Translations under genes and position numbers: made by a program
Source: an uncultured Ignavibacteriales bacterium
GTDB taxonomy: Bacteria; Bacteroidota; Ignavibacteria; Ignavibacteriales; Ignavibacteriaceae
Length of the DNA: 64,000 bases
Direction of reading: 5' to 3'
NCBI GenBank assembly: GCA_963834015.1
Contig: CAWIAG010000004.1
Location: 1,749,926-1,813,925, forward strand
Shown: piece after piece, positions 5,529 to 46,472 of the stretch
How the letters are laid out: each line of letters starts with the position of its first letter
Position numbering within the stretch: position 1 is the first letter of the stretch
Notes under the pieces: generated by a model
Seen by the model: only the letters and a program-made list of their open reading frames with translations
Databases searched by the model: none
What the model was told of the DNA's origin: nothing

Positions 5529-5529
5529 T

Positions 5530-19676: not shown

Positions 19677-19715
19677 TGGCTGATTACCCCGGTTTGAAAA
19701 AATAAAGGTAAAAAA

Positions 19716-20957: not shown

Positions 20958-21022
20958 AATATTAAAAATTGAATTATTTAGAAAATAAAATTATTTACGG
21001 TAATATGCCATTTTAATGAATT

Positions 21023-21063
21023 GTTTAAGTTCCCATGTATTGTACTTAAACACCTGTTTTTTT
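21023..21063 (+). terminator. Rho-independent terminator after the beta-helix gene
   Basis: GTTTAAGT-tcccatgtattgt-ACTTAAAC followed by ACCTGTTTTTTT. Confidence 0.55.
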
Positions 21064-21306
21064 AGATGTGTACCAGCAAACCATTAAATGAAAATTTATT
21101 TTTCATTATGAAAAATCTAAAATATTAAATATGCTCAAGTAATTATAACTTTTGTAATTGTTTTAATTTTTTGTGATTTTTATAAAATAACGACCAGAAA
21201 TAATATTAAATACCGGGATTAACTCCGTGCGGGTAATAATTCCGGCAAAACAAACAGATAAGATTTATTTATAAACTTAATTAAAGTAAGCAGTTCGGAG
21301 GAATGA

Positions 21307-22563: not shown

Positions 22564-22776
22564 ATTGATTTCACAAATAGTTTAAGATAATGAAAATATG
22601 CCGTTGATAAATTTAAAAGATACTTTCGCAGATACAGATTTAGGCGACTATGAAGCGGGGATATTAAAAGCAGTTGATACGTTGTGCATCAGATCAATTT
22701 TAAGAGTTAAGAAGAAAGTATAAAAGAAGCCCTATGGAAAAAATTCATTTGTTCAATGGCAATTTTAAAAGTATAA

Positions 22777-23742
22777 ATGAGGTTAACCATGCATGAAGTA
22801 ACATGTCTCGGGATAATCGTAGCTGATGTAATTGCAAGAACAGTAAACGCACTGCCGCAGGAAGGTAAACTTGATCTTATAGACCAGCTTGAACTGCATC
22901 TTGGAGGATGTGCGTCAAATGCGGCAGTTGATCTTGAAAAGATTGGAATAAAAACAGCAGTAATCGGAAGGGTTGGGGAGGATGGATTTGGTTCCTTTGC
23001 AATAAATGAAATGAAGCTTAACAATGTTAATGTTGAAGGTATAACAGTAAGTAATATAAGTAAAACTTCTGCTTCGGTTGTTTCGGTTCATTCAAACGGA
23101 GAGCGATCTTTCCTGCATCATATAGGGGCAAATGCAGATTTTGTAACTGATGATATTAACTATCCAATTATATTTAAATCAAAAATATTATTTATTGCCG
23201 GTGCATTGCTAATGCCGCGCTTTGACGGCATCCCTTCATCAGAAGTATTAAAAGCTGCACAGGAAGCAAAAATAATAACAGTAATGGACACTGCCTGGGA
23301 TTCAACAGGTAAATGGATGCAGAAAATTAAGCCATGTTTACCGTATCTGGATTATTTCATGCCGAGCCTTGAAGAAGCTGAAATGATATCGGGTAAAAGC
23401 AAGCCTGAAGATATTGCCGATGTATTCCTGGAGGCAGGAGTAAAAACAGCTGTAATAAAACTCGGTTCCAAGGGCTGTTATATTAAGAATAAATCAAATG
23501 AACAATATAATATTGGAGCATTCTTGGGAATTAAAACAGTTGATACAACGGGAGCCGGAGATTCATTTGCCGCCGGATTTATAACGGGAATACTCCGCGG
23601 ATGGGATATTCCGGCGTGCGGTGAATTCGCCAATGCTGTGGGGGCACATTGTGTTATGAAAGTAGGAGCTACATCAGGGATAAAAAAATTTGATGAGATA
23701 ATGGATTTTATAAATTCAAATAAAAAAAGAAATGTAAAATGA
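22777..23742 (+). CDS. PfkB-family carbohydrate kinase (ribokinase/fructokinase/KDG-kinase-like)
   Basis: DTTGAGDSFAAGF ATP-binding motif; N-terminal GIIVADV and GG; 321 aa. Confidence 0.85.
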   Translation: MRLTMHEVTCLGIIVADVIARTVNALPQEGKLDLIDQLELHLGGCASNAAVDLEKIGIKTAVIGRVGEDGFGSFAINEMKLNNVNVEGITVSNISKTSASVVSVHSNGERSFLHHIGANADFVTDDINYPIIFKSKILFIAGALLMPRFDGIPSSEVLKAAQEAKIITVMDTAWDSTGKWMQKIKPCLPYLDYFMPSLEEAEMISGKSKPEDIADVFLEAGVKTAVIKLGSKGCYIKNKSNEQYNIGAFLGIKTVDTTGAGDSFAAGFITGILRGWDIPACGEFANAVGAHCVMKVGATSGIKKFDEIMDFINSNKKRNVK

Positions 23743-24284
23743 CAAATAAAACCGAACTTGAATATGCAAGAAGCAGGGCTTTGAATTACTTCCTAAAGGC
23801 TAAAATAACTCTTTCTGAGAAAGAAAAAGAAAACATTGAAGTAGCCGATTTTGGACTAAACAGGTTAAATGAAATAGGCCTTCAAATTCTTGTCTATGTA
23901 AATACAGAAAGGTGCTGTGCCAAAGAGCTTGTCCTTTTCCCTTATCAAATATGCCCTGAGCACCGTCATCCGGATATCAATGGAATCCAGGGAAAAGAGG
24001 AAACATTCAGATGCCGGTTCGGGAAAGTGTACTTATATATTGACGATGAGCCTTCAGAAAACATTTCTGCTGTTATTCCAAAAGATAAACAGAATAGTTT
24101 TACCGTAAAACACGAAATAATTCTTAATCCCGGCGATCAATATACACTTAAACCCGGAATCCTTCACTGGTTTCAGGCTGGCTCAAAAGGTGCAGTAGTA
24201 TCGGAATTTTCGACCAGGAGCAGCGATGAATCTGATTACTTTACCGACCCTGAAATAAAAAGAATACCTGAAATTGAATATTAA
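23739..24284 (+). CDS. Cupin-fold sugar isomerase of the D-lyxose/D-mannose ketol-isomerase family
   Basis: 181 aa. LVLFPYQICPEHRHPDINGIQGKEETFRCRFGKVYLYID matches the metal-binding core of D-lyxose isomerases. The start overlaps the upstream kinase stop (ATGA). Confidence 0.6.
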   Translation: MTNKTELEYARSRALNYFLKAKITLSEKEKENIEVADFGLNRLNEIGLQILVYVNTERCCAKELVLFPYQICPEHRHPDINGIQGKEETFRCRFGKVYLYIDDEPSENISAVIPKDKQNSFTVKHEIILNPGDQYTLKPGILHWFQAGSKGAVVSEFSTRSSDESDYFTDPEIKRIPEIEY

Positions 24285-24347
24285 AAATACATAAAAACCC
24301 GAAAAGCGATTTTAAATAGCCTGATTTTAAAATAATACGGATATAAA

Positions 24348-25208
24348 ATGGGAATACTTGGTATTGATATTGGTGGCACGAATATTCGTACCGGATTGGT
24401 AGAAGACAATAAATTAGTTAAGGTTGAATCCATTGAGGTACCCAAAAGCGGTACTAAAGATGAAATAATTAATAACATAGTTACAATGATCCAAAAGTTC
24501 AGCACTAAAAAGATAAATGGAATAGGCATAGGTGTACCAAGCGTGGTTGACATTGAAAAAGGTATTGTATATGATGTTCAGAACATTCCTTCATGGAAAG
24601 AAGTTCATCTTAAGAAAATATTAGAAAAAGAGTTTAAGGTTCCCGTCTATATTAACAATGATGCCAACTGCTTTGCGGCGGGTGAGAAATATTTCGGCAG
24701 CGTGAAAAAGTATAAGAATATTATCGGCTTAATAATTGGTACGGGGCTTGGTGCGGGTATTATAGTTAACAATCAATTATACTCGGGAAATAATTGCGGA
24801 GCCGGCGAATTCGGGATGATACCCTTTAAAAATAATAATTATGAATATTACTGCTGCGGCCAGTATTTTAATAATGAATTTGGTAAATCGGGTGAAGAGA
24901 TTTTAGCAAGTGCTGAAAAAGGTAATCGCCTTGCTTTAAAAATATTCGACGAATATGGTTCTAATTTAGGCGAAGCCATTAAAATGATTATGTATGCCTT
25001 AGATCCCGAAGTAATTATTCTTGGGGGATCAGTTAGTAAATCATATAAATTTTTCGAAAAAGTAATGTGGAAATCGATAAAAAGATTCGCATATGCAAAA
25101 TCCGCTGCCAAAATAAAAATTGAAGTTTCTAAAGTGAAACATATTGCCATTCTGGGAGCTGCCGCAATATACCTGGATGTGCAGGAAAAGAACTCAATAA
25201 TAAATTGA
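24348..25208 (+). CDS. ROK-family sugar kinase (glucokinase/fructokinase/NagK-like)
   Basis: N-terminal GIDIGGTNIRTGLV ATPase motif; length 286 aa. It lacks the Cys-rich zinc motif, so it is a kinase rather than a repressor. Confidence 0.85.
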   Translation: MGILGIDIGGTNIRTGLVEDNKLVKVESIEVPKSGTKDEIINNIVTMIQKFSTKKINGIGIGVPSVVDIEKGIVYDVQNIPSWKEVHLKKILEKEFKVPVYINNDANCFAAGEKYFGSVKKYKNIIGLIIGTGLGAGIIVNNQLYSGNNCGAGEFGMIPFKNNNYEYYCCGQYFNNEFGKSGEEILASAEKGNRLALKIFDEYGSNLGEAIKMIMYALDPEVIILGGSVSKSYKFFEKVMWKSIKRFAYAKSAAKIKIEVSKVKHIAILGAAAIYLDVQEKNSIIN

Positions 25209-26443: not shown

Positions 26444-27838
26444 TTGGGAAAAATGATGAGAAATCTAAACGCCATATTATGTGTAATTCTAATTTGCATA
26501 AGCTTACACGCCGGCGACAAGGGATGGACAAATTTATTTAATGGCAAAAATCTTGACGGTTGGAAAGTATTAAACGGTACTGCAGAATTTAAGGCTGAAA
26601 ACGGCTGTATTATTGGGATATATAAACCCAATACACAAAATACTTTTTTGGCAACGACGAAGAATTATGAAAATTTTATTCTTGAATTAGAAGTAAAAAT
26701 GGATACGTCATTAAACTCCGGAGTGCAGATCAGGAGCAGTTGCCAGGCGGATTATAGAAACGGGGTTGTTCACGGAGACCAGGTGGAAATAGACGGGTCT
26801 TCACGTGCATGGAGCGGCGGTATTTATGATGAGCAGGGCAGAGGATGGTTATATAATCTTGAGTGTAATCAAAATGCTAAAGCCGCATATAAAAACGGGA
26901 AATGGAATAAATATCATATCGAAGCTATCGGGAATAATATCCGCGTTTGGATTAACGGAATTCAGACGGCAGATCTTGTAGACGATACTGCCTTAAGCGG
27001 ATTTATTGCATTACAGATACATAGTATTGATAATAATATTAATACCGACCGCACTGTCCAATTTAAAAACTTAAGAATGAAGTCAACGAATCTTGACAAA
27101 GAGAAACGCCCCGAATCAAATAAAATTCCCCAAATAAGTTTTCTTAAGAACAAACTTACAGAAAGAGAAAAAAAAGAAGGATGGAAATTACTATGGGACG
27201 GTAAAACAACAAACGGCTGGCGCGGTGCAAAATTGGATCACTTTCCTGAAAAAGGATGGCATGTTACTGATGGAATTCTAACAGTAGAAAAAAGCGGCGG
27301 ATATGAATCAAGAAACGGCGGGGATATTGTAACCATAATGAAATACAAGAATTTTGAACTGGAAGCTGACTTTTTGTATACCAGGGGTGCCAACAGCGGG
27401 ATAAAATATTTTGTTGATACGGATTTAAATGACGGGCCGGGTTCGGCGATAGGCTGTGAATACCAGATACTTGATGATGATGTTCATCCCGATGCAAAAC
27501 TGGGTGTAAACGGCAACAGGACATTAGCTTCGCTTTACGATCTAATCCCGGCTAATGCTCTTATTTATTCCCCGCATGAAACCACACCTAAACGTGTAAA
27601 TAAGTATGGCTGGAACAGGGCTAAAATAGTGGTTGAAGGAAACCATGTTGTTCACTATTTAAATGGAATTAAATTGGTTGAATATGTTCGCGGAACACAG
27701 ATGTGGAGAGCGCTTGTTGCATACAGTAAGTACAAGAAATGGCCGAATTTTGGCGAACATGAATATGGCAATATTTTGCTTCAGGACCATGGTGATGAAG
27801 TATCGTTTAAAAACATTAAAATTCGTGAGTTGAAGTAA
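26444..27838 (+). CDS. Secreted protein with two tandem DUF1080 (3-keto-disaccharide hydrolase / LamG-like) domains
   Basis: Two copies of the DUF1080 opener ([16 protein letters not shown]... and [18 protein letters not shown]...), each with the conserved G..QIRS / H-rich core. Signal peptide present. Confidence 0.8.
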
Positions 27839-29694: not shown

Positions 29695-30804
29695 TTATTT
29701 AAACATAGTTGAAATTACTTCAGGATTACCATGCTCAGGGACAAACGGTAAACCAAGGAATGCTGCTATTGTGGGTGCAACCTGCTTGTTGTAAAGCTGA
29801 CTTTTGCTTTGAACTTCACCAAGCGGTGGAGTGTCCGGTCCGATGACGGCCAGCCACGTTTCCCCTGATTCGGGAATACTTGCTCCGTGCTCCATCCAGT
29901 TCCGTTTAAAGTGATCGCCCCTGCCGTGATCACATAACAAAATTAGTGTGGTTTTATCTTTGTACTGCGGGTCAGATTGTAAAAACCTCCAGAGCTCTGC
30001 AATACACCTGTCGGAAGCATGTACCTGCTCCAAATAATAATCATACAATCCCCGATGAGCTAAATCGTCTGTGCCGTCAAATCCGAGAAAGGCGACACGC
30101 GGATGATATTCTTTTATGTATTCAAATCCTATGTAGTAAGTTAACAGATCCTCACGCACATCGCCGCCGAGAAAATGCGGATCCCCGGATTGTATTTGAT
30201 TAAGCAATTTCATTTCCGGCGACAATTGTTTGCCCGGTATAGCTAACTGTTCACTGCCGCTGTTTATTAAAAGCTTAGAGCGTTCCCTGTTAAGAATTGA
30301 CGGGAATACATCCCATGAAGTAAATACGACAACCTGATCCTTAAAGTCTTCCTGCTGATTTATGAATTCCAAAACATTCTTGTTCGGGTTAAGATTTTTA
30401 TGGTTGCTGTTTATATTAGTATCAGGGTAACCGGTAAACATTTCATTATATCCGGGATATGAAAACTGATACCTGTTTGCTACATTAACAAAGTTCCCGG
30501 TTGTGCGGTTCCCGTACAATTGTCCATCAACAGCAATTACATTCCAAAAAAATGGCAATAATTTTTTACGACTTTTTTCGGGAGTGGATGCGCCGAACAA
30601 GTACTTAATGTCTTCGGGTTCCTTTGTGAAATTTTTATTATTGGCTATAGCAGTATCAATTCCTCCAAATAATTCCTGCCATCGGAAACCATCCAGTGTT
30701 ATAATAATAACATTTTCCGTCCGCCTGTTTTGAGTTTGAGCGGAAGATAAAGAAATACCAATTACTGTGGCTAATAAAACGAAATATATTTTTGTTTTTT
30801 CCAT
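29695..30804 (-). CDS. Secreted alkaline-phosphatase-superfamily enzyme (type I phosphodiesterase / nucleotide pyrophosphatase-like)
   Basis: Signal peptide, then IIITLDGFRWQE (the metal-ligand Asp/Thr region of the PF01663-like family) and a downstream DHGRGDH metal site. Confidence 0.7.
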   Translation of the reverse strand: MEKTKIYFVLLATVIGISLSSAQTQNRRTENVIIITLDGFRWQELFGGIDTAIANNKNFTKEPEDIKYLFGASTPEKSRKKLLPFFWNVIAVDGQLYGNRTTGNFVNVANRYQFSYPGYNEMFTGYPDTNINSNHKNLNPNKNVLEFINQQEDFKDQVVVFTSWDVFPSILNRERSKLLINSGSEQLAIPGKQLSPEMKLLNQIQSGDPHFLGGDVREDLLTYYIGFEYIKEYHPRVAFLGFDGTDDLAHRGLYDYYLEQVHASDRCIAELWRFLQSDPQYKDKTTLILLCDHGRGDHFKRNWMEHGASIPESGETWLAVIGPDTPPLGEVQSKSQLYNKQVAPTIAAFLGLPFVPEHGNPEVISTMFK

Positions 30805-31099: not shown

Positions 31100-32902
31100 T
31101 TATATATCGGATTTTGGGGCTTCCTCTTTCAGCTTGTCGTGGACCATCATACCGATGAGAACATTCATTATTGATCCGTCACCGTCTGCACCGCCTCCTG
31201 CAATAATATCCGGCACCCATTTATTTGCACTTCCGGCCAGGTTCTTAGAGACTTCTATTGCTGCGTAATTGCTTGACTGCATCGATTTAATTTTTAAGGT
31301 AATTACATCTGCTTCAGCCGTACCAACCGCTTTAATTTTCTCTCCCTCAGCGGCGCCTACTATCTTGAGGACGGTAGCATCCGCTTCTGCGTTAATAGTT
31401 TTTGATTTAGCTTCACCTTCGGCTTTTTTTATTGCTGCCTGCGCCGCGAAATCATTTATCTGAACCGTACGCTCAATGCTGACGACGTTTGCCTGTGTAT
31501 CCGCCATTGCTTTAGCCTGCTGAAGATCTTTTCTTGTTTCTTCGGCTAGCCGTTGTGTGTCATACGTAATTTTTTCCTGCTCGGCTATTTTCCGGTCAGT
31601 CAGGGTTTTCATCAGTTCCGCAGGAGGTGTAATATCTCCTATTAGAGTATCAACGGCGTTCACATTATAGTCGATAAGCGCTTCACTAATTGAAGCCTTT
31701 GCCTCTGACTGCCGTTCACTACGTTTTTTTAAAAAATCAATTACATCAGACCGTTGGGCAGCATTGCGGAAGTAATTTCCGATAGTGGGTTCGAGAACCT
31801 GAGTAACCAGGTTGGGCATATTTCCAAACCGGGCAATTACTTTTGGCGCATCGTTTCGTGGTATGTGGATGATTTGACTTACGTCAAGGTTGAAGGTAAA
31901 TCCGTCAAAGGACCTGACTGTGATAGTTGATAGTTTCTCATCCAGCTTATGAGCTTCGCTTTTATTTGTAGCCCAATTAAGGACAACATTTGCCGTAGGA
32001 ACAATTTCAACCTTGTGAGTGTATGGATTTATAGGATATTTCCCGGGATCCAGGGGCTCAATCCAAACGCCTTTTTGGCTTTTTGAGACAAGATTACCAT
32101 GTTTGAAAGTATCTCCTGTTACATCCTTACCTTCTTCTCCTACATAGGCGATGACAACACCGACATTAGCAATTGGTACGTCCGTCATTGGTTTCTGTTC
32201 AACTGTAGCGAACTTAGGGTTCAAGAAATAACGGCCCGCAAGAATAACCTGTTCCTGCAAACCTTTGTAGCCGCCGTTTGTTATAAATGTTTCCGGATCC
32301 TGATACATATTGTGCCCGGGAATTTCCTTGCCGGCAATTTCCCCTGTTGGTAGCGGTTTCCCGTCTTTTGTAGTTACAACACCGACCATATTGTCGGGAA
32401 TTTCAACTACATCCTCGGTATAAACTGTAAACAATGATGTATTAATCCTGTATGTACCGGGAGGTATAATAGAAATCTGGGGACCACGCTCGCCGCCGTT
32501 TTCAATAAAGGCACGTGCATCCTGGAAAGATTTACATTCCACTGTTCTAGCAAGGACTCTACCGCCGGAAAGTGGTTTACCATCACGTGCCTCAACAGTT
32601 GCGATTTGGTTTCGCTCGACAGTAATAAATTTTTGCAGCTTAATAATATATTGCCAAGGCCACAACCAAAAGTGAATTCCGGGAGCGAGAGTGTCTGCCT
32701 GAAGCCCTGCTTCACCCTTTAAGGCGATGATCGCCCCGTCAGGGAGTGTCCTGTTCCTGCCAAGCAGAACCCATTTTTTGTTAACAATGCCGATTGAATC
32801 TTCCGGAACCAATACTACTCCAAACAGTCTTAGTACCAGTTTATTTGCTATTAGAATTATTATGATTAATAATACCCACCAAAAACTCAATACTGTATCC
32901 AT
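31100..32902 (-). CDS. Flotillin-family SPFH/band-7 protein (FloT/YqiK-like)
   Basis: N-terminal TM segment, an SPFH domain, and a long Ala/Glu/Lys-rich coiled-coil tail (AEADATVLKIVGAAEGEKIKAVGTAEADVITLK). 600 aa. Confidence 0.8.
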   Translation of the reverse strand: MDTVLSFWWVLLIIIILIANKLVLRLFGVVLVPEDSIGIVNKKWVLLGRNRTLPDGAIIALKGEAGLQADTLAPGIHFWLWPWQYIIKLQKFITVERNQIATVEARDGKPLSGGRVLARTVECKSFQDARAFIENGGERGPQISIIPPGTYRINTSLFTVYTEDVVEIPDNMVGVVTTKDGKPLPTGEIAGKEIPGHNMYQDPETFITNGGYKGLQEQVILAGRYFLNPKFATVEQKPMTDVPIANVGVVIAYVGEEGKDVTGDTFKHGNLVSKSQKGVWIEPLDPGKYPINPYTHKVEIVPTANVVLNWATNKSEAHKLDEKLSTITVRSFDGFTFNLDVSQIIHIPRNDAPKVIARFGNMPNLVTQVLEPTIGNYFRNAAQRSDVIDFLKKRSERQSEAKASISEALIDYNVNAVDTLIGDITPPAELMKTLTDRKIAEQEKITYDTQRLAEETRKDLQQAKAMADTQANVVSIERTVQINDFAAQAAIKKAEGEAKSKTINAEADATVLKIVGAAEGEKIKAVGTAEADVITLKIKSMQSSNYAAIEVSKNLAGSANKWVPDIIAGGGADGDGSIMNVLIGMMVHDKLKEEAPKSDI

Positions 32903-33123
32903 ACTATATTTTCCTCCTATTTTTTTGAGCCGGTTAAAGATTTTACGTGGAGCTAAAGAGTTGACAACGTAAAATAAATAAGAAATAAAACGAAATCAAG
33001 ATAAGCATTAAATTATAGTTTTGGCTCTATTATTTTACGACCTTTTTACTTTAATTGTAACTGTTCATTAAGAATTGTTTGCTCTTTAATTTAAAATATA
33101 ATTACATAACTATTCAGAGTGTA

Positions 33124-34017
33124 ATGGAAGGTATTGTTTTCGATATTCAAAGGTTTTCACTACATGACGGCCCAGGGATAAGAACAACAGTGTTTCTAAA
33201 AGGCTGCCCGCTGCATTGTGTATGGTGTTGTAACCCGGAATCGGTTAAAAACTCGCCTCAATTGGCTTTTATCGAAAAGAACTGCAGTATGTGCAGGAAC
33301 TGCATTACGGCGTGTAAAGAAAATGTATTTTCTTTTTGCGGCGAGAACCTGAAAACCGATTTCTCAAACTGCAATTTGTGCGGAGACTGTATAGAAGCAT
33401 GTGATACAGGAGCATTAAAATTATTCGGCTATAGGGTAAGTGCAGATGCCGTTATTGCCGAGGTTATTAAAGATATTAGTTTTTATAATAATTCCGGCGG
33501 CGGCCTGACGCTTTCAGGCGGTGAACCGCTAGCACAACCGGACTTTGCGATTGAAATTCTTGAAGGTGCAAAGAAATATAATATCCATACCTGTGTTGAG
33601 ACTTCAGGTTTTGTAAATAAAAATTTAATTTTAAAAACTATACCGTTTATCGATATGTATTTATTTGATTTTAAAATTGCATCCGAATCCATGCATCAAA
33701 AATATACAAGTGCCGGCAACAGAATGATACTTGAAAATTTAGAGCTATTAATTAAAAACGGATGCTCTCTTATTCTCCGGTGCCCCATTGTCCCGGGGAT
33801 AAATAATGATGAAATGCATTTCAAAAGCATTGCGGAATTATCAAGGAAATATCCCGGGCTTAAAGGTGTTGAGCTTATGCCTTACCATAACTGGGGCATA
33901 GATAAATATAAACAAACAGGAGTGGAACCTGATTTTAAATTCGGATCAGGAACGAAAGAAGATAAACAAGTTTGGATAAAAAAAATTAGTTCATTCGGCG
34001 GGAAAAATATTTATTAA
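33124..34017 (+). CDS. Glycyl-radical-enzyme activating enzyme (radical SAM, with two auxiliary ferredoxin-like 4Fe-4S motifs); tool ORF starts at 33079
   Basis: Canonical GRE-activase N-terminus FDIQRFSLHDGPGIRTTVFLKGCPLHCVWCCNPES (CX3CX2C). Also CSMCRNCITAC and CNLCGDCIEAC (Cx2Cx2Cx3C) and the LSGGEP SAM motif. Confidence 0.85.
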   Translation: MEGIVFDIQRFSLHDGPGIRTTVFLKGCPLHCVWCCNPESVKNSPQLAFIEKNCSMCRNCITACKENVFSFCGENLKTDFSNCNLCGDCIEACDTGALKLFGYRVSADAVIAEVIKDISFYNNSGGGLTLSGGEPLAQPDFAIEILEGAKKYNIHTCVETSGFVNKNLILKTIPFIDMYLFDFKIASESMHQKYTSAGNRMILENLELLIKNGCSLILRCPIVPGINNDEMHFKSIAELSRKYPGLKGVELMPYHNWGIDKYKQTGVEPDFKFGSGTKEDKQVWIKKISSFGGKNIY

Positions 34018-34142
34018 TTGGCGTATAGGTGAAAATTGGTTCAATCATGGTGTTTTATTAAAATTAATATTGTATGATGCTTCGCTTATAATTATTTAAT
34101 TTTAGCCTGCATAAACAAATTAACAATAAGTAATTTATTTGT

Positions 34143-36389
34143 ATGATTACTGCAAACGATTTAGCTGTTTTACTCACGGAGATGACGCGTGTTTATAGGG
34201 AAAACACAAATAATAAATATATGCGCGAAGCTGCATTTCTGAAAGTTCAACAAAAGGCATTGTTCACTCCTATAGAAAAAGACGATTTATTTGTTGGGAG
34301 AACGAAGCAATTACCGATTGGATTTTTACCACAGTCCGATGAAGGGTCCCTTGGTTATTATATCCATCCCGTTGCAATTAAACAGCTTTTGGACGATCCC
34401 GTTCTGACTGCCGGGAACCAAGTAAAGCTTAAGGAAATTGAACAATTCTGGAATGAAAACTCCACAGTAACAAAAGCCAAATCGGCTTTCACCACGGATA
34501 TGATGAAAGCGCTGCCGAGCGACATGTATACCACAGAATCAGGTATAGCTTTTACATTATGGAGAATGAGCGGAGTTCAATTAGATTATGCAAAATTAGT
34601 CAGGCTTGGGATACCGGGTTTAAGGGATGAAATAAGAAAACGAAACTTAAACGCAGTCCCCGGTACGGAGCGATGGAATTTATACCAGTCAATGCTGAAG
34701 GCTCTTGATAACCTGGTTGAATTATGCCAAAGTTATTCGAACGAAGTACGCAGGTTATATAAAGACGAGACCGATACCGGCAGGAAAAAAGATTTAGCTG
34801 AGATGGAGCGCATCCTTCATAAATTACCTGAATCAAAGCCCGGGAGTTTCCGTGAGGGGATTCAATTAATTTATATTTATAATGCCGCGGACGGAGCCAG
34901 AAATTACGGCAGACTGGACAATGCACTGGCTGATTTATACTGCACGGATATTGAAAAAGAAATTATCGACAAGGAAGAAGCAATCCGGCTGCTTTCCGGT
35001 ATGTGGCGGCTTATTATAGACCGCGGCTACAGGTATGACAGCAGGATAATAATAGGAGGCAAAGGAAGGTTTAATGAAGAAAAAGCAAATGCCCTTGCCG
35101 TGACGATTATAGAAACTACACGCAGAGTAAAAGATATAGTGCCGCAATTGGCTTTGCGCTTCAATAAAAATCAAGACCCGGTTTTGTATAATATGGCACT
35201 GGATATTATAGGCGAAGGCAACCCTTACCCGATGCTGTATAACGACGATGTTAACATCCCGTCAGTTATGGAATCGTTTGACATCCCGGAAAATGAAGCC
35301 GAACATATTATCCAGTTCGGGTGCGGCGAATATGCGCTCGACCATAGAAGCGTAGGTACACCAAGCGGGGTGATAAATTTACTTCAGGCGCTGAACGTTA
35401 CAATTAATAATGGGATTGATCCCGTTACACAAAAACTAATGGGCATGCCGACAGAGCGGTATACAAAGTACGGCGAGTTTGAAACGTTTGATGACCTTCT
35501 AAAAGCTTATAAAGAACAGGTTGAATATCATGTGGATTTTCTTGCCAAACATGAAGAACTTGAATATTTGTATGCGGGAAAAGATGCAGCATACTTATAC
35601 TCAAGTATGCTGATGGATGACTGTATTGAAAGAGGAAAAGGAATTTATGAAGGAGGGATCAGGTACCTGGGAGGGACGCTTGAATCCTACGGCAACAGCA
35701 ATACGGCAGATGCTCTTACCGCAATAAAAAAATTAGTTTACGATGAAAAAATCCTTTCAATTTATGAATTAAAGAGCTGCCTTCAGGCAAATTTTTCCGG
35801 CTATGAGCGCATTCAGAAAAAAATGTTAAACTGCCCTAAGTACGGAAATGATAACGAAACGGCAGATAACATGTTGCTTGAAGTGCATAACCATTTATGC
35901 AATTATACATTAAAGCAAAAACACAGCACATCTCTTCATTCATATCTCGTGGTTGTTATAAATAACGATGCAAATACTATCATAGGCGAACATACATCAG
36001 CGTCGGCGGATGGGAGAAAAGCATTTGCTTATATGAACCCGGGCAATGCCCCTGTGGACGGGATGGACAAAAACGGAGTTACTGCATTCCTGAATTCTAT
36101 TGTTAAACCGGATACGCGGATACATGCAGGAGCAGTGCAAAATATGAAATTTTCAAAAGAAATGTTTTCAGAGTACCGGGATAAATTAGAAATTCTGCTG
36201 GCAACGTACTGGCAAAACGGCGCTGCCCAGGCAATGCTTACGGTTGTAGGGCGTAACGACCTTGAGGCTGCTATGGAACACCCGGAACTTTATCAAAACC
36301 TTTTGGTACGTGTGGGAGGCTTTAGCGAGAGATTTGTCAATTTACCACGGCACACTCAGCTTGAAATATTGAACAGAACTTTGTACTGA
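34143..36389 (+). CDS. Glycyl radical enzyme (PFL-family; eliminase-type GCxE active-site loop), substrate unknown
   Basis: 748 aa. C-terminal glycyl-radical motif VRVGGFSERFVNL about 30 aa from the end. Mid-protein Cys loop QFGCGEYALDH (Cys plus Glu at +2, as in the glycerol/propanediol dehydratase, CutC and HypD class). Adjacent dedicated activase. Confidence 0.75.
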   Translation: MITANDLAVLLTEMTRVYRENTNNKYMREAAFLKVQQKALFTPIEKDDLFVGRTKQLPIGFLPQSDEGSLGYYIHPVAIKQLLDDPVLTAGNQVKLKEIEQFWNENSTVTKAKSAFTTDMMKALPSDMYTTESGIAFTLWRMSGVQLDYAKLVRLGIPGLRDEIRKRNLNAVPGTERWNLYQSMLKALDNLVELCQSYSNEVRRLYKDETDTGRKKDLAEMERILHKLPESKPGSFREGIQLIYIYNAADGARNYGRLDNALADLYCTDIEKEIIDKEEAIRLLSGMWRLIIDRGYRYDSRIIIGGKGRFNEEKANALAVTIIETTRRVKDIVPQLALRFNKNQDPVLYNMALDIIGEGNPYPMLYNDDVNIPSVMESFDIPENEAEHIIQFGCGEYALDHRSVGTPSGVINLLQALNVTINNGIDPVTQKLMGMPTERYTKYGEFETFDDLLKAYKEQVEYHVDFLAKHEELEYLYAGKDAAYLYSSMLMDDCIERGKGIYEGGIRYLGGTLESYGNSNTADALTAIKKLVYDEKILSIYELKSCLQANFSGYERIQKKMLNCPKYGNDNETADNMLLEVHNHLCNYTLKQKHSTSLHSYLVVVINNDANTIIGEHTSASADGRKAFAYMNPGNAPVDGMDKNGVTAFLNSIVKPDTRIHAGAVQNMKFSKEMFSEYRDKLEILLATYWQNGAAQAMLTVVGRNDLEAAMEHPELYQNLLVRVGGFSERFVNLPRHTQLEILNRTLY

Positions 36390-36411: not shown

Positions 36412-38256
36412 TCAGATGGTTTTTATGTAATCCAATACGTTTAGCAAGGCAAGATAGTTATCTACCAAAAAACCTTCATAACCCCAACATTCGTTTTTCC
36501 ATGTTTTCCAGTCTTTTGTCATTTCACTTCCGCTGCAGTATCCCTGAAATGCATTTGTTTTATAGCTTTCAAGCAGCGGGAATAATATTTCTTCGGCTTC
36601 ACGGTGCATATTTAATTTGAAAAGTGCATGAATAGTATAATACACGTAACATCCACTGGCGCCCCCGTTTTCATATACCTGAAAATTCTGATAGCCGTAA
36701 CGCGGATTCTGGTCGGTGTAATCCTTATCTGCGATTGGAACCAGGTTGCCGGGCAATCCCAGTCGGAAATCCGTAAAGCCGACTTGCTTCATTTTACCGA
36801 GTAGTGTCAGCATAATTTTTTTAGCTTCTTCCATACTAATAAGATCATAACAAACGGCAACACTGTTAACAAAGGTAAAATAATAATCATGCAATTGCCC
36901 GTCTTCACTGCGCCAGCCTGCCAGAATTCCCGTTTCGGGATTATAAAATTTTGAAAAGTATTGGCTCTTAAGTTTATTTGCAAAAGCTGCAAAGTAAAGG
37001 CTGTCTCCAGAATATCCAAGCGTTTCTGCAACATCTGCCAGTAAAGTTAAAGCTTTGTAAGCCAGGGCGTTCGAATAAGCGTCATCATGCCCGAAACCGA
37101 TTGTATCCCACCAGTTTGCCGGCCGTTTAAAATCTTCTTTGCTCCAGCTATTGGAATTCCCCGAATATCCGTATTCAATAATCCCGTCATGATTTCTATC
37201 TGTGGCAATCATGCCTGCAGCCCAATCCTTAACCGCGTTATAGTTTTGTTTTGCCCAATCGTTATCTTTTGTATCCATGATATAATAACACGCTGAAATA
37301 ATAAGTGAAGGAGCGCTGTCCGATGAATCGAATTTACTTTTCCATACATCGCCTTTATAACCAACCTGTCCGTAGGCTTTCATTCCACCGATATATTCAT
37401 CCAGTGAATTCCTGACAAGATCCATAGCGCCGACGCCTTTTACAAGTTCGGGAGTATGCCGCGCCATTTCTGCATAAATAAAAACCGTAAATGCACATGC
37501 GTCGCTTGCGGAATTATTGGCAAGGCTCCGTATGCGCGGGTTTAATTGGAAAATATTAATATAATTGCGCTTGAAACCGTCAAACCTTGAATCGTTTTTT
37601 ATTTTATCAATAACAGGATAAACAGCAACAGGATCAAAGCGATAAGTAATATCCGGATGATCAATAGAGGCCGGAGAAAAAACTAATTTTACATAAGGGT
37701 CTTTAACGTCGCGGTCTGCATCATAATAAACGTTTGCGCCGGGGTCGCTACAGTAAATACGAAAACTTCCCAGTCCCGGGAAATGCAATAAGCATGGAAA
37801 ATTTACAATGTTTTTCCCGGGCATTATTCCCAACATGGTACAGTGATTTGTTTTATGTGAAAATGTGATTGAAAAGGGAAGGAAATTTTCTTTTTTATTG
37901 TACCTTGTACGGATACTAAAAGTATGAGGGTGCATAATAAATTGCCAATCAGGTATATCTCCCCGGCTACCTTTTGAAAGGTATGATATGCTATCTGACT
38001 TTACAATACTTTCATAATTTATTTCAGGTTTTTGACCTTTTAATAATAAAAGGTTTTCCGGGAATTGCCTGCTGCCTAAACTATCAGCGGAGAAAAAAGA
38101 TAACTCAGGGCGGGCTCTTAATAATTGTAATTTAAAGAAAGGTGACTTATAAGTGAAATCCTTTCCTGTATCCGGCAAAAATGCTAAAGGTGTTGGTATT
38201 CCGGCAGCAATAGCAGCCAGTGCAGTCTTTTGAATAAATTGACGGCGCGAAATCAT
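36412..38256 (-). CDS. TAT-exported hypothetical protein (614 aa), possibly (alpha/alpha)6-barrel glycosidase-like C-terminal domain
   Basis: Twin-arginine signal MISRRQFIQKTALAAIAAG. Aromatic- and acid-rich C-terminal half (WWDTIGFGHDDAYSNALAYKAL). No confident family assignment. Confidence 0.65.
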   Translation of the reverse strand: MISRRQFIQKTALAAIAAGIPTPLAFLPDTGKDFTYKSPFFKLQLLRARPELSFFSADSLGSRQFPENLLLLKGQKPEINYESIVKSDSISYLSKGSRGDIPDWQFIMHPHTFSIRTRYNKKENFLPFSITFSHKTNHCTMLGIMPGKNIVNFPCLLHFPGLGSFRIYCSDPGANVYYDADRDVKDPYVKLVFSPASIDHPDITYRFDPVAVYPVIDKIKNDSRFDGFKRNYINIFQLNPRIRSLANNSASDACAFTVFIYAEMARHTPELVKGVGAMDLVRNSLDEYIGGMKAYGQVGYKGDVWKSKFDSSDSAPSLIISACYYIMDTKDNDWAKQNYNAVKDWAAGMIATDRNHDGIIEYGYSGNSNSWSKEDFKRPANWWDTIGFGHDDAYSNALAYKALTLLADVAETLGYSGDSLYFAAFANKLKSQYFSKFYNPETGILAGWRSEDGQLHDYYFTFVNSVAVCYDLISMEEAKKIMLTLLGKMKQVGFTDFRLGLPGNLVPIADKDYTDQNPRYGYQNFQVYENGGASGCYVYYTIHALFKLNMHREAEEILFPLLESYKTNAFQGYCSGSEMTKDWKTWKNECWGYEGFLVDNYLALLNVLDYIKTI

Positions 38257-41693: not shown

Positions 41694-44600
41694 TTATTCC
41701 CTGACTTTTACTGTTAAGTTAAATGATTTCTTAACCCTGCCGCAGACTGTACCGGTTTGGTCGTCAACAAGCAGTTCAACTTTATATATTCCTTCTTGTT
41801 TATATTTATGAAATACAATCGGCAAAGCAGATGATTCACCATCCCCAAATTTCCAGACTATCTTTAATAAATTCCCATCGGCATCGACCACGTTGGATGC
41901 ATCGAATTTAACTTCGTCATTTGCACTGTTTATATAAACAACAGAATCCTGCAATTCAGGAATCTGAGGCGGTTCAACTGCATAAACCAGTGTTGAATCA
42001 CTATAAAAAATATTATTCATTCCATCGCTCAAAACAAAATAGTAAATATATTTACCGCTTTTCTGAACAGAATGATTTAATATCCTGCTATCGGAGTTAA
42101 ATAAACCGTTTTTGCCGTTCCATTTAAATTTAAACTCGGCGTCTTTAAATTCCGTTCGAATTACCGGGTTTACGGTAAACATCTCCCCGGCACAAACATT
42201 GATAGATTTGGGAATAGAGCAATCCGGATAATTAATTACTTTCAGGTACTTTGTAGATTCACTAATGCTGTTTTGAGTATTTAATTTGTCTTTGACCACC
42301 AGCCTTATCTTATTTAAACCTGTGCGGCTGAAAATCGTTTTAAATTCAGCTTCATGTGAAACATCAACATCATTTACATACCATTCAAAATCAAGTTCAC
42401 CGCCGGAGTTGGAAGATTTGCTTCCATCCAGTTCAATCTGTTCATTTACAAATAAGTATTCAGGCAGTGAAAAATCAGCAACAGGCTCATCAAAAATATT
42501 TAAATAAATTGTATCCCTGTCGGTGTTATTCTCAACATTTGTATTATCGGTAACTGTTAAAATAACCCTGTACTTCCCTTTGAAAGAATAGGAATGCAAT
42601 ACGGAAATTCCTTTACCGGTAGAGCCGTCGCCGAAATCCCAAATATATTTGGATATACTACCGTCGGGGTCAAATGATTTTTTACCGTCAAATGAAACCG
42701 GTTGATAAACTGCAGCCGTTTGTACAGAACCTATTTTTGCAACCGGGGGAGCATTAACAGAAACCGGCTTTAAAAATAAAGCGGAACTGCATTCATTTTT
42801 AGAATCCGTTTGAATTCTAAGAGTTACGGTAAAATTGCCGGACTTTGAATAGGTGTGGTTTACAACTTTTCCTTTTGTGTAAGAACTATCACCAAAATCC
42901 CAGTTATAATCTGTAATGTTTCCCACACTAGTTGAACTGGAAGATGCATCAAATACCTGCAAAGAATTCTGAGGAATGGAATCGCATGAAGCAAACGAAG
43001 CATAAGGAGCGTCCACAACCGTAACGGTTATCTTATCTAAAGATGTATTATCGCAGCTTCCTTTTTCATTTCCCGTAATCGTGAGCGTAACTTTATATTT
43101 GCCCGTCTTATAGTATGTGTGAACAGGCCTTGCCCCGGCGCCGGTTTCGCCATCGCCGAAATCCCAATCATAGCTTGCAATGGTTCCTCCGGCAGCGGTG
43201 GATTTAGAACCGTCAAATTTAATTTGTGAATTGGCACAAATAATAGTATCGCTGCCCGCGTTTGCAATAGGCGCTTCGTTAACATTCAAAAGTTTTGTAG
43301 TAATAGCCGAACTGCAGGCTAAACCGGAATTATCGGTTACTGTTAAAATAACTTTATGCGCCCCGCCTTTTTTGAATACTTTAAATACACTGCTTCCTGA
43401 TAAATGGGAAGAATCATCAAACGACCATAAATAATCCAGTTGAGTATTGTCGAAAGACCTGGATTTTAAACCGTTCAATATTACTATATCGCCGGCACAA
43501 ACTGTAGTATCAGCTCCTGCATCAGCAACAGGAGGGCGGTGAATTTTTACTGTAATGTTTTTCTTTACGGAAGAATTAGACAAGTTAAGCCCGTCGTTTA
43601 CCGTTAATGTAACCGGAAAAACACCGTAGTCCTTAAAATTATGAGTAATAATTCCGCTTCCCAGAACTTCCTTTTGATCCGGGAAAGTCCAGGAGTAGCT
43701 CAACTGGTCGCCGTCCGGATCGTATGAACCCGAGGCATCAAAAGTAATTATTTTATTGCACGATTCAATATATTCCTGTGTCTTTATAACAGGCGGCGTG
43801 TTGATCTTTATGTATATTGTGTCCGGGACATTAGAATTGGCAACACCGGCATTGTCGGTAACAGTTAAAACTGCGCAGTACAAACCCGATTTATTGAATG
43901 ACCTTTCTACTACTTTTCCTGTTTTCATCAAGCCGTCGCTGAATACCCATGAATAGAATTTTATAGTACCATCGACATCGTATGATTTGGAGGCATCAAA
44001 CCTTAACTTTTGATTCGGGACGGCGATGGCAGTATATTCAATTTTAGGAACCGGCGGCGAGTTGACTATTACTTTTGCATAATCCACACTTGATAAAGGC
44101 TTAACAAAATCATCTGTAACTTCAAGCCCTACTGTATAAGTTCCGGGTTCTTTGAATGCATATTCAAACCGTCTGCCTTCCGAAATGAATTTATTATCTA
44201 CAAACCACCTGCTTTTGAGGGCTCTTCCATCGGGATCAACGGAGCGCGAGCTGCTGAAGCTAACCGTTTGTCCCGGGGCAACCACCTGGTCCGGGCCTAT
44301 ATCCGCAACCGGCCTTCTATCTATTATTACTTTTGAAGTATCAAAAGCAGAATTATTCTTTGCTTCGGTATTATCATATACCTGCAGTGTAACAGTGTAA
44401 GCACCGGCTGTTCTGTAAGTATGCGAAACTGTTTTCCCTTCATCAGTATAGCCGTCTCCAAAATCCCAGATATATCTTGTAATAGTGCCGTCTACATCGT
44501 AAGATTTTGAACCGTCAAAAACTGCATAACCGTTGTTCAGGTACTGATCATTTACAATTTTTGCAACAGGCTGCGCATTAACCGTGATTTCAACAGAGTC

Positions 44601-46472
44601 AATATTAGTATCGGTAACGGTTTCCGAATTATCCCTGACTTTTAATGAGACTATATATTTACCGTATTTAGGATAACTGTGGTAAACTTTTATGCCGCTG
44701 GCTATGGTTCCATCCCCAAAATTCCATTCGAAGTTATTAATTTTATAGCCCTCTGTTGTAGATTTTGAACCGTCAAACAATAGATTTTCATCAGTTGCCA
44801 CAACCCTGTTGGAACCAAGATTGGGAACAGGCTGGTTATGAATTACAACGTTTACGAATGCCGACGAAGTATTATTTGATGCATCGGTATTATCTTTAAC
44901 TGTTAATTTTACCTTGTAACTTCCGGTTTCAGAGAAGCTTTGTGTAACAATTTTTCCTTCTTTTTTACCGAGGGTTCCGAAATCCCAAATATACTGCACA
45001 ATATTTCCATCAGGGTCAAAGCTGGGCGAAGCATCAAAAGTTAACGGTTGACCAGGGGGAGCAGTAAGCCTTTCTTTTGTCTTTGCGACAGGCTGCATAT
45101 TAATGAATATTGAAATGCCGGTTGTATCAAGATTACAAACCTGTTTGGAAGTTTCTTCAACCGTTAGAACAACTGAATACCTGCCCGGATTTTTATAAGT
45201 ATGTAATACTTTAATTCCGCTGCCTGTCTCACCGTCTCCAAAAGACCAGGTATACTTTGTAAGATTGGGATTGTTTACAACTGATTTACTTCCGTCGAAT
45301 TGGACCTTCTCATTAAGCGCCCTGACCAAATCGGTGCCGGCATCAGCTTTTGGTTTAGGCAATATATTAACTTCGTAAGGTTCCAGTTTTGCGCGGGTGA
45401 TAGCATTTGACTGTTCTTCCACCAAAACTTCTTCGTTATATTTTCCCGGGCCGGGAAATTCCTGCCAACATATATCACCATTGCATTTTGCAGCCGGCCC
45501 GTCAGGCCAGTTAAAAATTAAACCATAATTTTCAGGTGAATTTGTGCCCGAAAAATCGAGTTCGGCGCTAAAGCAGCCGGTTTGTTTTATTTGCTTTACT
45601 ATGTTGGGTATAGTTGCCGGTACTTTATTATAGTAAGGCAGTTGAATGGGAAGTTTTTTCCCCTGCTTGTCTGTGAAATAAAAAGTTATATCATTTATAC
45701 TGTGCATTTCAGGGCCGAAATCGAGAGCACATAAATTACCCCTTTCATATTTACTCAAAGGAACTTTTATGCTTGACCAATTTTGGGGATCATTTTCAGT
45801 CAATGGAATTCCATCCCGGAGCAGAGTACTCAGGGCGATATTAGTGCCGTCAAAATCAAAGGTATGAATATTTATTTCGTCATCATTCTTGCCGGGCATG
45901 GTTATAAAAGAAACCTTCATTGGATTTTTCGCCAGTTGAATTGTCGGCTCATAAGAATAAAACTTTACATTATTTATTGTCCTGTTCTGGGATGGTTCGG
46001 AACTGATAAACAATTCAAATACGTTGCCGTCATGGCCTTCGATGCCCTGGGAAACCAGAGTATATACAGACCCGGAATCATTGGGGACACCTGCAAGCAA
46101 TGCCCAGCGTTCAAGATATTTTTTATCATTGCCTACTTCAATTTGTTTAATCAAACTGCTTTGTATTCTTGCCTTAAAATCACCGGGGCTTAACAAGCTG
46201 TCTTCCGGAATTTCACCTTTGTAAAGAGAGAACCGGAACTTAGAATCCCAATTTCCAATTCGTTCATCTAAAGAAGAGCCGCATGCAGCATCAAAAATCC
46301 TGACATAGGCCATACCTTTATAGCCGGCCGGCAGTTTAAAATGAATGGCCTGAATATAGTTGTCATCGCCTTCACCCGGGCTAGCCTGGGGGCCGAAATT
46401 TATAAATCTTAACCTTGTTTGAGCGTTTACAATAAGAGGCAGTAATAACAATAGTAAAAGTAATTTTTTCAT
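41694..46472 (-). CDS. Giant secreted multi-PKD-domain surface protein (1592 aa)
   Basis: Signal peptide MKKLLLLLLLLPLIVNAQ, an N-terminal ~350-aa unknown domain, then about 12 PKD repeats (recurrent W.FGDG...H.Y...G.Y.V.L.V.D). No T9SS CTD. Confidence 0.85.
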   Translation of the reverse strand: MKKLLLLLLLLPLIVNAQTRLRFINFGPQASPGEGDDNYIQAIHFKLPAGYKGMAYVRIFDAACGSSLDERIGNWDSKFRFSLYKGEIPEDSLLSPGDFKARIQSSLIKQIEVGNDKKYLERWALLAGVPNDSGSVYTLVSQGIEGHDGNVFELFISSEPSQNRTINNVKFYSYEPTIQLAKNPMKVSFITMPGKNDDEINIHTFDFDGTNIALSTLLRDGIPLTENDPQNWSSIKVPLSKYERGNLCALDFGPEMHSINDITFYFTDKQGKKLPIQLPYYNKVPATIPNIVKQIKQTGCFSAELDFSGTNSPENYGLIFNWPDGPAAKCNGDICWQEFPGPGKYNEEVLVEEQSNAITRAKLEPYEVNILPKPKADAGTDLVRALNEKVQFDGSKSVVNNPNLTKYTWSFGDGETGSGIKVLHTYKNPGRYSVVLTVEETSKQVCNLDTTGISIFINMQPVAKTKERLTAPPGQPLTFDASPSFDPDGNIVQYIWDFGTLGKKEGKIVTQSFSETGSYKVKLTVKDNTDASNNTSSAFVNVVIHNQPVPNLGSNRVVATDENLLFDGSKSTTEGYKINNFEWNFGDGTIASGIKVYHSYPKYGKYIVSLKVRDNSETVTDTNIDSVEITVNAQPVAKIVNDQYLNNGYAVFDGSKSYDVDGTITRYIWDFGDGYTDEGKTVSHTYRTAGAYTVTLQVYDNTEAKNNSAFDTSKVIIDRRPVADIGPDQVVAPGQTVSFSSSRSVDPDGRALKSRWFVDNKFISEGRRFEYAFKEPGTYTVGLEVTDDFVKPLSSVDYAKVIVNSPPVPKIEYTAIAVPNQKLRFDASKSYDVDGTIKFYSWVFSDGLMKTGKVVERSFNKSGLYCAVLTVTDNAGVANSNVPDTIYIKINTPPVIKTQEYIESCNKIITFDASGSYDPDGDQLSYSWTFPDQKEVLGSGIITHNFKDYGVFPVTLTVNDGLNLSNSSVKKNITVKIHRPPVADAGADTTVCAGDIVILNGLKSRSFDNTQLDYLWSFDDSSHLSGSSVFKVFKKGGAHKVILTVTDNSGLACSSAITTKLLNVNEAPIANAGSDTIICANSQIKFDGSKSTAAGGTIASYDWDFGDGETGAGARPVHTYYKTGKYKVTLTITGNEKGSCDNTSLDKITVTVVDAPYASFASCDSIPQNSLQVFDASSSSTSVGNITDYNWDFGDSSYTKGKVVNHTYSKSGNFTVTLRIQTDSKNECSSALFLKPVSVNAPPVAKIGSVQTAAVYQPVSFDGKKSFDPDGSISKYIWDFGDGSTGKGISVLHSYSFKGKYRVILTVTDNTNVENNTDRDTIYLNIFDEPVADFSLPEYLFVNEQIELDGSKSSNSGGELDFEWYVNDVDVSHEAEFKTIFSRTGLNKIRLVVKDKLNTQNSISESTKYLKVINYPDCSIPKSINVCAGEMFTVNPVIRTEFKDAEFKFKWNGKNGLFNSDSRILNHSVQKSGKYIYYFVLSDGMNNIFYSDSTLVYAVEPPQIPELQDSVVYINSANDEVKFDASNVVDADGNLLKIVWKFGDGESSALPIVFHKYKQEGIYKVELLVDDQTGTVCGRVKKSFNLTVKVRE

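Follow-up and report, generated by a model that had tools for sequence, protein, structure and literature searches.

The window analysed here is a 64,000-nt stretch of DNA (GCA_963834015.1, contig CAWIAG010000004.1, positions 1,749,926-1,813,925 of the forward strand) from an uncultured Ignavibacteriales bacterium of the family Ignavibacteriaceae, and it contains the gene of a glycyl-radical enzyme (GRE) together with that of its activating enzyme (activase). The two genes form a genuine two-gene module, and sequence comparison places the GRE in a deep-branching, previously uncharacterised clade of the GRE superfamily resembling pyruvate formate-lyase (PFL). Our reading, to which we assign a probability of about 0.6, is that this bicistronic unit carries out a radical C-O (or C-X) cleavage of the Cys-X-Glu (CXE) type on a carbohydrate-derived substrate. 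It starts from what was observed in the gene structure, the motifs, the fold, the separation of the clade and the conserved neighbourhood. Coordinates are counted from the first letter of the window, and residue numbers are those of the 748-aa GRE.

Both open reading frames (ORFs) were found where a previous sequence-only reading of this DNA had placed them, with a refinement at the start of the activase. The mechanically called ORF opens at the TTG in 33079; since the N-terminus aligns with those of homologues, which start MKGIIFDIQRF, the start is almost certainly the ATG in 33124 (MEGIVFDIQRFSLHDGPGIRT), giving a predicted product of 297 aa (33124-34017, + strand). This protein is a radical S-adenosylmethionine (SAM) enzyme that scored 326 bits against NCBIfam TIGR02494, "glycyl-radical enzyme activating protein" (cut-off 174), and matched Radical_SAM, Fer4_12 and Fer4 in Pfam. 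Its translation shows the CX3CX2C motif of the radical-SAM [4Fe-4S] cluster (CPLHCVWC, 33205-33228, + strand) and two ferredoxin-like CX2CX2CX3C motifs of an auxiliary cluster domain (CSMCRNCITAC and CNLCGDCIEAC, 33283-33402, + strand; Pfam Fer4/Fer4_7). The features that define GRE-activating enzymes are all present: the SAM cluster, a Gly-rich motif near the N-terminus and an insert of the ferredoxin type that carries two Cys clusters. It had first been described as a textbook activase. The protein fell below the cut-off of every substrate-specific activase equivalog of NCBIfam, the top match being the HypD activase (301 bits). An AT-rich spacer of 125 bp (34018-34142, + strand) separates activase and GRE; no terminator-like site was found in it, and promoter-like matches were not commoner than in shuffled sequences, the promoter and terminator scans performing no better than shuffles. 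The two genes are probably co-transcribed.

The GRE gene (34143-36389, + strand) encodes a protein that matches the PFL-like domain (PF02901, 349 bits) and the Gly_radical domain (PF01228, 69 bits) of Pfam. For comparison, 85 related loci were fetched and, together with the window (n = 86; 1.55 Mb in all), their ORFs were called and clustered and the cluster representatives annotated. In the alignment of the 86 GRE sequences, the Cys loop G393-C394-G395-E396-Y397 (35319-35333, + strand), with Cys394 as the putative thiyl-radical residue and Glu396 as the putative base, is kept throughout: C394, G395 and E396 are present in 86/86 sequences and Y397 in 85/86. The loop aligns with the GC[VI]E loop of glycerol dehydratase (GD), HypD, CutC, YbiW and PflD, and C394 falls on the catalytic Cys of six reference GREs. 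The glycyl-radical fingerprint R723-V-G-G726-F (36309-36323, + strand), with Gly726 as predicted radical site, corresponds to RVAGY in the aligned references and is unchanged in all 85 family sequences that reach this column. Thus both motifs stand as first described, at residues 393-397 and 723-727, and CXE and RVGG are constant over 86 relatives spanning 44-100% identity, as they were in an earlier set of 34 members. RVGGF had been regarded as atypical. It fits the published fingerprint RVXG[FWY] (PMC11528403), so that the Gly motif is not aberrant, the unusual feature being the Gly at position X. The CXE loop had been taken as the mark of an eliminase, and it does agree with eliminase-type chemistry; however, it is common to all GRE eliminases and isomerases, in which the Glu hydrogen-bonds a substrate hydroxyl, and is therefore also the hallmark of the isomerases HplG, YbiW and PflD (PMC13450708).

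The AlphaFold2 model of the GRE, built on 34 homologues, has a mean predicted local distance difference test score (pLDDT) of 92 and a predicted TM-score of 0.92. A Foldseek search of the PDB with this model retrieved GREs only (more than 40 chains, probability 1.00, TM 0.82-0.86, 18-25% identity), which confirms the GRE barrel fold. The matches include GD, HypD, two 1,2-propanediol dehydratases (PDs), N-methyl-hydroxyproline dehydratases, YbiW, PflD, CutC, IslA, IseG, HpsG and benzylsuccinate synthase. Judging from sequence searches with the GRE, no characterised enzyme is singled out: phmmer against PDB sequences gave 230 bits for GD, 227 for HypD and 213 for CutC, with identities of about 20-25% throughout, and the family profile gave 351 bits for GD, 346 for CutC, 332 for HypD and 330 for YbiW. 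The GRE reached 296 bits against TIGR01774, the PFL2/glycerol-dehydratase subfamily, whose cut-off is 678. HypD, HpsG, HpfG, CutC, IAD, HPAD and PFL were considered as identities and rejected; because all these NCBIfam equivalogs fall far below their cut-offs, no assignment is possible. In a neighbour-joining tree of 23 family members with GD, HypD and CutC, whose sequences came from the profile alignments, and E. coli YbiW, PflD and PflB, the family was monophyletic and lay outside the group of the five characterised CXE enzymes (GD, HypD, CutC, YbiW and PflD), which share 32-43% identity among themselves and 23-30% with the family. The description of this protein as a divergent GRE with a dedicated activase is thus borne out, since it lies below all NCBIfam GRE cut-offs and in a clade of its own, separate from every characterised subfamily in the tree. 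Outcomes that would have spoken against it, such as a missing GRE fold, a Gly motif that varies among orthologues or grouping with a known subfamily, did not occur.

This clade is widespread. A GRE protein 100% identical to ours is on record from an Ignavibacteriaceae metagenome-assembled genome (MAG), and more than 120 homologues with 50-83% identity, annotated merely as "pyruvate formate lyase family", come from MAGs of Bacteroidales, Prolixibacteraceae, Limisphaerales, KSB1 and Melioribacteraceae. When one genome per GTDB species was scanned with two family-specific peptide patterns, 400 relatives were found; the carriers, about 400 species, are mostly polysaccharide-degrading Bacteroidota, Ignavibacteriota, Kryptoniota, KSB1, Calditrichota and Rhodothermales, with some Bacillota. 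Among the carriers are the cultured Ruminiclostridium cellobioparum subsp. termitidis, Rosettibacter primus and Pelagihabitans pacificus, and a MAG assigned to Melioribacter roseus also carries a relative. A review of June 2026, which catalogues all characterised GREs, states that whole clades remain unassigned (PMC13450708), and our literature search, GRE papers of 2024-2026 included, found no publication on this clade.

Pocket positions were assigned by sequence alignment to solved structures; the numbers of GD Cys433, Glu435 and His164, of CutC Cys489 and Glu491, and of the Arg and Gln residues of IslA and HpsG were taken from the literature (PMC13450708). The residues R141, G144, R257, D259, R301, H401, S403, T406-P407-S408, I606-N607-N608, N611, H661, Q666 and N667 are invariant or near-invariant in the 86 family sequences, and R141, R301, H401, T406-P407-S408, I606-N607-N608, N611 and H661 are specific to the family. 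The R257-x-D259 pair (GR[LMFV]D) is a general feature of the CXE group rather than of the family, because it is found in all five CXE reference rows. In the column of GD His164, a His is also present in HypD, YbiW and PflD, an Asp in CutC and an Arg in PflB; here the family has the invariant G144 followed by a variable residue 145 (G25/T17/V15/S11/I9), and a one-residue shift of the alignment does not alter this variability. A loop with the sequence ESNGHS in GD and YbiW, and with an Asp in HypD, is 7 residues shorter in the family and reads D-G-x-R-N-Y. A second pocket-loop segment is 13 residues shorter, and the Asn that follows this segment, conserved in GD, HypD, CutC and YbiW, is replaced by the invariant Arg301. 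Compared with the CXE enzymes, the family has Gly for Val/Ile and Tyr for Pro/Thr/Leu in the Cys loop, and Gly for Ala in the Gly loop. The strand bearing GD Tyr640 reads I-N-N-x-A-N, with the invariant Ile606 aligned to Tyr640. We take the deleted loops to be those carrying GD His281/Ser282 (7-residue deletion) and Tyr339 (13-residue deletion), and assume that these residues and Tyr640 line the GD pocket; the numbering of the HypD, CutC and PflB residues is likewise assumed. Compared by alignment with GD and CutC, the family therefore has no equivalent of GD His164 or of the CutC Asp and carries two loop deletions. Its pocket is predicted to be larger, more polar and devoid of the canonical acid, which argues against a C2-C3 diol, an unlikely substrate; such a pocket would be compatible with a polyhydroxylated substrate, or with a leaving group that needs no protonation at that site.

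The activase adjoins the GRE in 62-71 of the 86 loci, upstream in the subclade of our GRE and downstream in the Ignavibacteria/Melioribacter subclade, and in 62/86 loci the operon consists of just these two genes on one strand. In four Bacteroidales loci (L034, L072, L077 and L079) the GRE is followed by a glycoside hydrolase (GH) of family GH130 and a nucleoside-hydrolase-like gene, with no activase called within the flank; their activase may be encoded elsewhere or shared. The loci behind the neighbour counts are phylogenetically non-independent. A divergent AraC-family regulator is present in 40/86 loci and a PhyH-type Fe(II)/2-oxoglutarate oxygenase, with an invariant HxD...H triad, in 22/86 loci from several phyla. 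Next in frequency come a Gfo/Idh/MocA oxidoreductase and an inosine-uridine nucleoside-hydrolase-like protein (20/86 each), a Kv-beta-type aldo-keto reductase (AKR; 17/86), a sugar ABC binding protein and a SMP30/gluconolactonase-like propeller (14/86 each), GH92 (13/86), GH130 (8/86) and LacI (7/86); Ignavibacteriaceae, Melioribacteraceae and related loci add a xylulokinase (TIGR01312, 584 bits, cut-off 380) and a flavodoxin. This neighbourhood is carbohydrate-related and leans to mannosides, without defining one pathway.

The PhyH-type oxygenase lies within the AraC-controlled GRE locus in L007, L009, L031, L039 and L041-L071 (e.g., L044:817-1575 and L061:8177-8935), and its nearest structures are PhyH, SnoK, EvdO2 and EctD. 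Homology of these oxygenases to E. coli YbiU was considered and rejected, BLASTP and hhalign being both negative; no functional paper on YbiU was found in the literature search. A conserved 397-aa protein (cluster c12) occurs near the GRE in 9 loci (e.g., L048:3262-4455 and L054:20008-21201) and gave no Pfam, NCBIfam or significant PDB match. The pathway context was examined by tblastn with E. coli query proteins against the window and the 85 loci, in which EutM, EutN, EutL, EutS, EutK, EutE, EutD, FucI, FucA, RhaA, RhaD, FsaA, GldA, YbiV and YbiU had no match, and the matches of FucK and RhaB were limited to xylulokinase-like genes. Given the absence of the Eut, Fuc, Rha, FsaA, GldA and YbiV proteins, neither a microcompartment/1,2-propanediol context nor an anhydroglycolysis context of the E. 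coli type is present.

The proposed mechanism is based on homology with every characterised CXE-type GRE (PMC13450708), and it is here that we infer the radical chemistry, the leaving group and the substrate class. The activase, with its SAM-binding [4Fe-4S] cluster and two auxiliary clusters, would be reduced by flavodoxin or ferredoxin, cleave SAM and take a hydrogen atom from Gly726; the resulting glycyl radical would generate a thiyl radical on Cys394, which would in turn take hydrogen from a hydroxyl-bearing carbon of the substrate. Deprotonation of this hydroxyl by Glu396 would give a ketyl radical able to expel the group on the neighbouring carbon, by breaking a C-O bond (in a dehydration or the opening of an ether or ring) or, with lower probability, a C-N, C-S or C-P bond, and the product radical would regain hydrogen from Cys394. 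The product would be a deoxy-keto compound that oxidoreductases and kinases, whether housekeeping or encoded nearby, can take up. As substrate we consider most likely a polyhydroxy compound of carbohydrate origin and about hexose size, such as a sugar, an anhydro-sugar, a cyclitol or a sugar acid.

Several points weigh against this reading. No recurrent partner gene adjoins the pair in the window, where the flanks are an SPFH gene and a six-hairpin glycosidase-like gene; and since 62 of the 86 operons contain only activase and GRE, the context evidence is indirect. Moreover, the loci are related by descent and their genomes are rich in glycoside hydrolases anyway. As the usual position lacks a conserved general acid, loss of a hydroxyl would require a different one, for which H401, H661, Y397 and D/H299 are candidates, and a leaving group better than hydroxyl is possible. 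For all clade members the function is predicted, and the pocket assignments are alignment-based.

The sequence-only reading had gone further and proposed, by way of example, a 1,2-diol from a deoxyhexose (fucose or rhamnose) as the substrate, which would make the GRE a 1,2-propanediol (or glycerol) dehydratase. The CXE motif is indeed present, GD and two PDs are among the best PDB/Foldseek matches, a GH78 rhamnosidase lies 20 kb off, and an aldehyde product could be reduced by the AKR that 17 loci have beside the AraC regulator. However, identity to GD and PD is just 23-26%, not above that to HypD, CutC and YbiW, the TIGR01774 score is under the cut-off, the position of His164 is variable and lacks an equivalent, and the pocket loops are deleted; in addition, no bacterial microcompartment (BMC) shell, EutE-type acylating aldehyde dehydrogenase, phosphotransacylase, FucI/FucA or RhaA/RhaD was found in the 1.55 Mb of the 86 loci. 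A diol dehydratase is thus highly improbable, and the earlier interpretation, right in outline, is only partly supported, its 1,2-diol proposal not being so. A ring-opening isomerase of an unphosphorylated 1,5-anhydrohexitol (1,5-anhydromannitol or 1,5-anhydroglucitol), that is, a version of the YbiW/PflD "anhydroglycolysis" independent of the phosphotransferase system (PTS), appears quite unlikely. It would assign the aerobic route to PhyH, the reduction of anhydrofructose to the Gfo/Idh/MocA protein or the AKR and the phosphorylation of 1-deoxyfructose to the XylB-like (FGGY) kinase, and these neighbours fit on paper, as do a DeoC aldolase (4 loci) and an SSF transporter (Bacteroidales loci). 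Sinorhizobium has a 1,5-anhydrofructose reductase of the Gfo/Idh/MocA type, 1,5-anhydromannitol is oxygenated aerobically at C1, and ybiU in the E. coli ybiW locus is presumably oxygenase-like, all of which count for this possibility. CXE is also common to YbiW and PflD, enzymes that open the ether of a sugar ring (PMC13450708). Yet the family is not nearer to YbiW or PflD (24% and 23%) than to other GREs and lacks the His that both retain, the PhyH neighbours have no detectable similarity to YbiU, FsaA, GldA, YbiV and YbiU homologues were not found near the GRE in any of the 86 loci, and the GH92, GH130 and nucleoside-hydrolase-like neighbours would be left unexplained.

The recurrent oxygenase also permits a bolder view, which we consider unlikely: the GRE would be the anaerobic half of an O2-independent/O2-dependent pair with the PhyH oxygenase. 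Both enzymes would attack one carbohydrate in its free, unphosphorylated form, such as an anhydro-sugar, a cyclitol or a glycoside, and the GRE would carry out a radical C-O scission on the intact sugar ring. If true, this would be an undescribed GRE reaction class and substrate type, widespread in environmental polysaccharide degraders. The missing conserved acid at the His/Asp position could instead be explained if the GRE released sulfite, phosphate, phosphite or an amine, all of them good leaving groups, from a small hydroxy-sulfonate or hydroxy-phosphonate or from a sugar derivative with a negative charge, in the manner of IslA, HpsG and CutC, since no general acid would then be needed. 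The invariant Arg301 fits this idea, as do sulfatase/alkaline-phosphatase-superfamily genes near some loci and in the window (29695-30804). The invariant Arg141, four residues upstream of the His/Asp position, resembles the R-x3-Q spacing of sulfonate lyases (PMC13450708), but the position R141+4 is variable rather than Gln, and HypD too has an Arg at the position of R141. Residue 606, assumed to correspond to the second Arg that binds the sulfonate, is Ile throughout the family, a mapping that is indirect as IslA is not in the alignment, and the recurrent neighbours lack sulfite reductase, TRAP and taurine genes; we consider expulsion of such a group very unlikely. Least probable of all is a radical dehydratase of a cyclitol (myo- or scyllo-inositol, or an inosose from mannosyl-inositol lipids), although the best NCBIfam matches of the Gfo/Idh/MocA and Zn-dependent alcohol dehydrogenase neighbours are IolG and IolM, a xylose-isomerase-like TIM barrel neighbour recalls IolE/IolO, and GH92 alpha-mannosidases recur. 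In fact, the Iol matches are far under their cut-offs (118 vs. 355 bits and 90 vs. 450 bits), and homologues of IolC, IolD and IolB were not identified among the annotated clusters.

In the window, the activase-GRE pair lies between an SPFH/Band-7 gene in divergent orientation (31100-32902; Pfam) and a convergent gene (36412-38256, - strand), whose stop lies 22 bp from that of the GRE. The latter, whose product had been noted before as TAT-exported, encodes a 614-aa protein with the twin-arginine translocation (TAT) start MISRRQFIQK (SRRQFIQ). Its sole Pfam match is a weak one to a rhamnosidase six-hairpin domain (29 bits) and a significant PDB sequence match was not found; it is likely a member of a new (alpha/alpha)6 glycosidase family. 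The sugar-gene setting described earlier is real in that rhamnosidase, mannosidase, kinase and isomerase genes are in the window, but GH78 (10291-13161; Pfam), GH92 (17430-19676, + strand; Pfam), PfkB, ROK and lyxose/mannose-isomerase genes are 8-23 kb from the GRE and in separate transcription units. GH92 opens an apparent mannoside/mannose operon (17430-25208, + strand) that continues with a 413-aa protein without Pfam match (19716-20957), a major facilitator superfamily transporter, a PfkB kinase, a D-lyxose/mannose-isomerase-like cupin and a ROK kinase. Before it, a 636-aa fusion of a PfkB sugar kinase and a HAD phosphatase domain (13453-15363, + strand) adjoins a gene of a probable TAT-type Gfo/Idh/MocA protein (15831-17243) and GH92. 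A 464-aa protein (26444-27838, + strand) has two stretches that match the 3-keto-disaccharide hydrolase domain (DUF1080; 277 bits), and a 48%-identical copy is found near the GRE in locus L011; together with the Gfo/Idh/MocA genes, it hints at 3-keto-glycoside chemistry.

Farther from the pair, an ORF-poor gap of 2.3 kb between GH30 and nitroreductase genes contains a type II toxin-antitoxin pair (5319-5820, - strand), in which a BrnT toxin (96 aa, PF04365, 94 bits) overlaps a CopG/BrnA antitoxin (103 aa). PKD repeats make up almost the whole of a 1592-aa protein (41694-46472, - strand; 13 stretches, 802 bits), after which come a FecR/glucodextranase-B-domain protein and a histidine kinase. 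In two secreted S8 subtilases of very large size (52770-57404 and 59625-63053, + strand), the protease is fused to FG-GAP beta-propeller repeats and to a type IX secretion system C-terminal sorting domain; the first has fibronectin type III domains as well, and a pair of DUF1670 helix-turn-helix proteins (57460-59105) lies between them. Rfam and tRNA scans of the window gave no matches.

The anaerobic reactions of GREs are chemically difficult, and up to now every clade that was newly assigned has led to a new pathway, such as those from choline to trimethylamine, of hydroxyproline, from isethionate to sulfide and of anhydroglucitol. That unassigned GRE clades exist is known to specialists; what is new here is a distinct and widespread clade with a remodelled pocket. 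It is an attractive one, having about 400 species representatives outside all characterised eliminases and isomerases, and being concentrated in environmental polysaccharide degraders rather than in gut Firmicutes. That it is repeatedly paired with an O2-dependent oxygenase points to a carbohydrate transformation for which both aerobic and anaerobic solutions exist. Since there are cultured hosts, namely Melioribacter roseus and the three cultured carriers named above, the function is directly testable.

Among known systems, GD of C. butyricum (1R8W/1R9D) and the PDs (5I2A/5I2G, 9RCO) have the same fold (TM 0.84-0.86) and share with the family the Gly fingerprint, the Cys-x-Glu loop and a partner activase with two auxiliary clusters. 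At 24-26% identity, the family differs from them in the His164 equivalent and ESNGHS loop, both missing, in having GCGEY and RVGGF instead of GCVEP and RVAGY, and in loci devoid of microcompartment or aldehyde-processing genes. HypD (6VXC/6VXE), the second-best sequence and fold match, also has CXE and an Arg at the R141 position; it differs by its 25-27% identity (271 bits for the family protein against a HypD cut-off of 1100), by the His in the GD His164 column, with no conserved equivalent in the family, and by the Asp-bearing loop deleted in the family, whose loci have no proline-metabolism neighbours. CutC and the C-S lyases IslA, IseG and HpsG share CXE and the lack of a His general acid, and CutC scores nearly as high as GD with the family profile (346 vs. 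351 bits). The CutC Asp at the His position and its Thr/Tyr/Phe pocket residues, whose roles we assume, are not conserved in the family, which has no BMC in its loci, and the sulfonate-binding R...Q...R triad of the C-S lyases is not reproduced, as far as the indirect mapping without an aligned IslA can tell. YbiW and PflD (8ID7, 8ID0, 8YJO), which are 1,5-anhydrohexitol-6-phosphate C-O lyases, show 23-24% identity to the family, belong to a separate clade, retain the His that is missing in it and differ in that the family loci have no PTS, FSA aldolase, sugar phosphatase or GldA neighbours. Nevertheless, they share CXE with the family and are the sole characterised GREs that act on sugars. 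E. coli ybiW has an oxygenase-like neighbour (ybiU) where the family loci have the PhyH oxygenase, with no detectable homology between the two, and yijO near E. coli pflD, which we take to be an AraC-type regulator, would parallel the AraC gene of the family loci.

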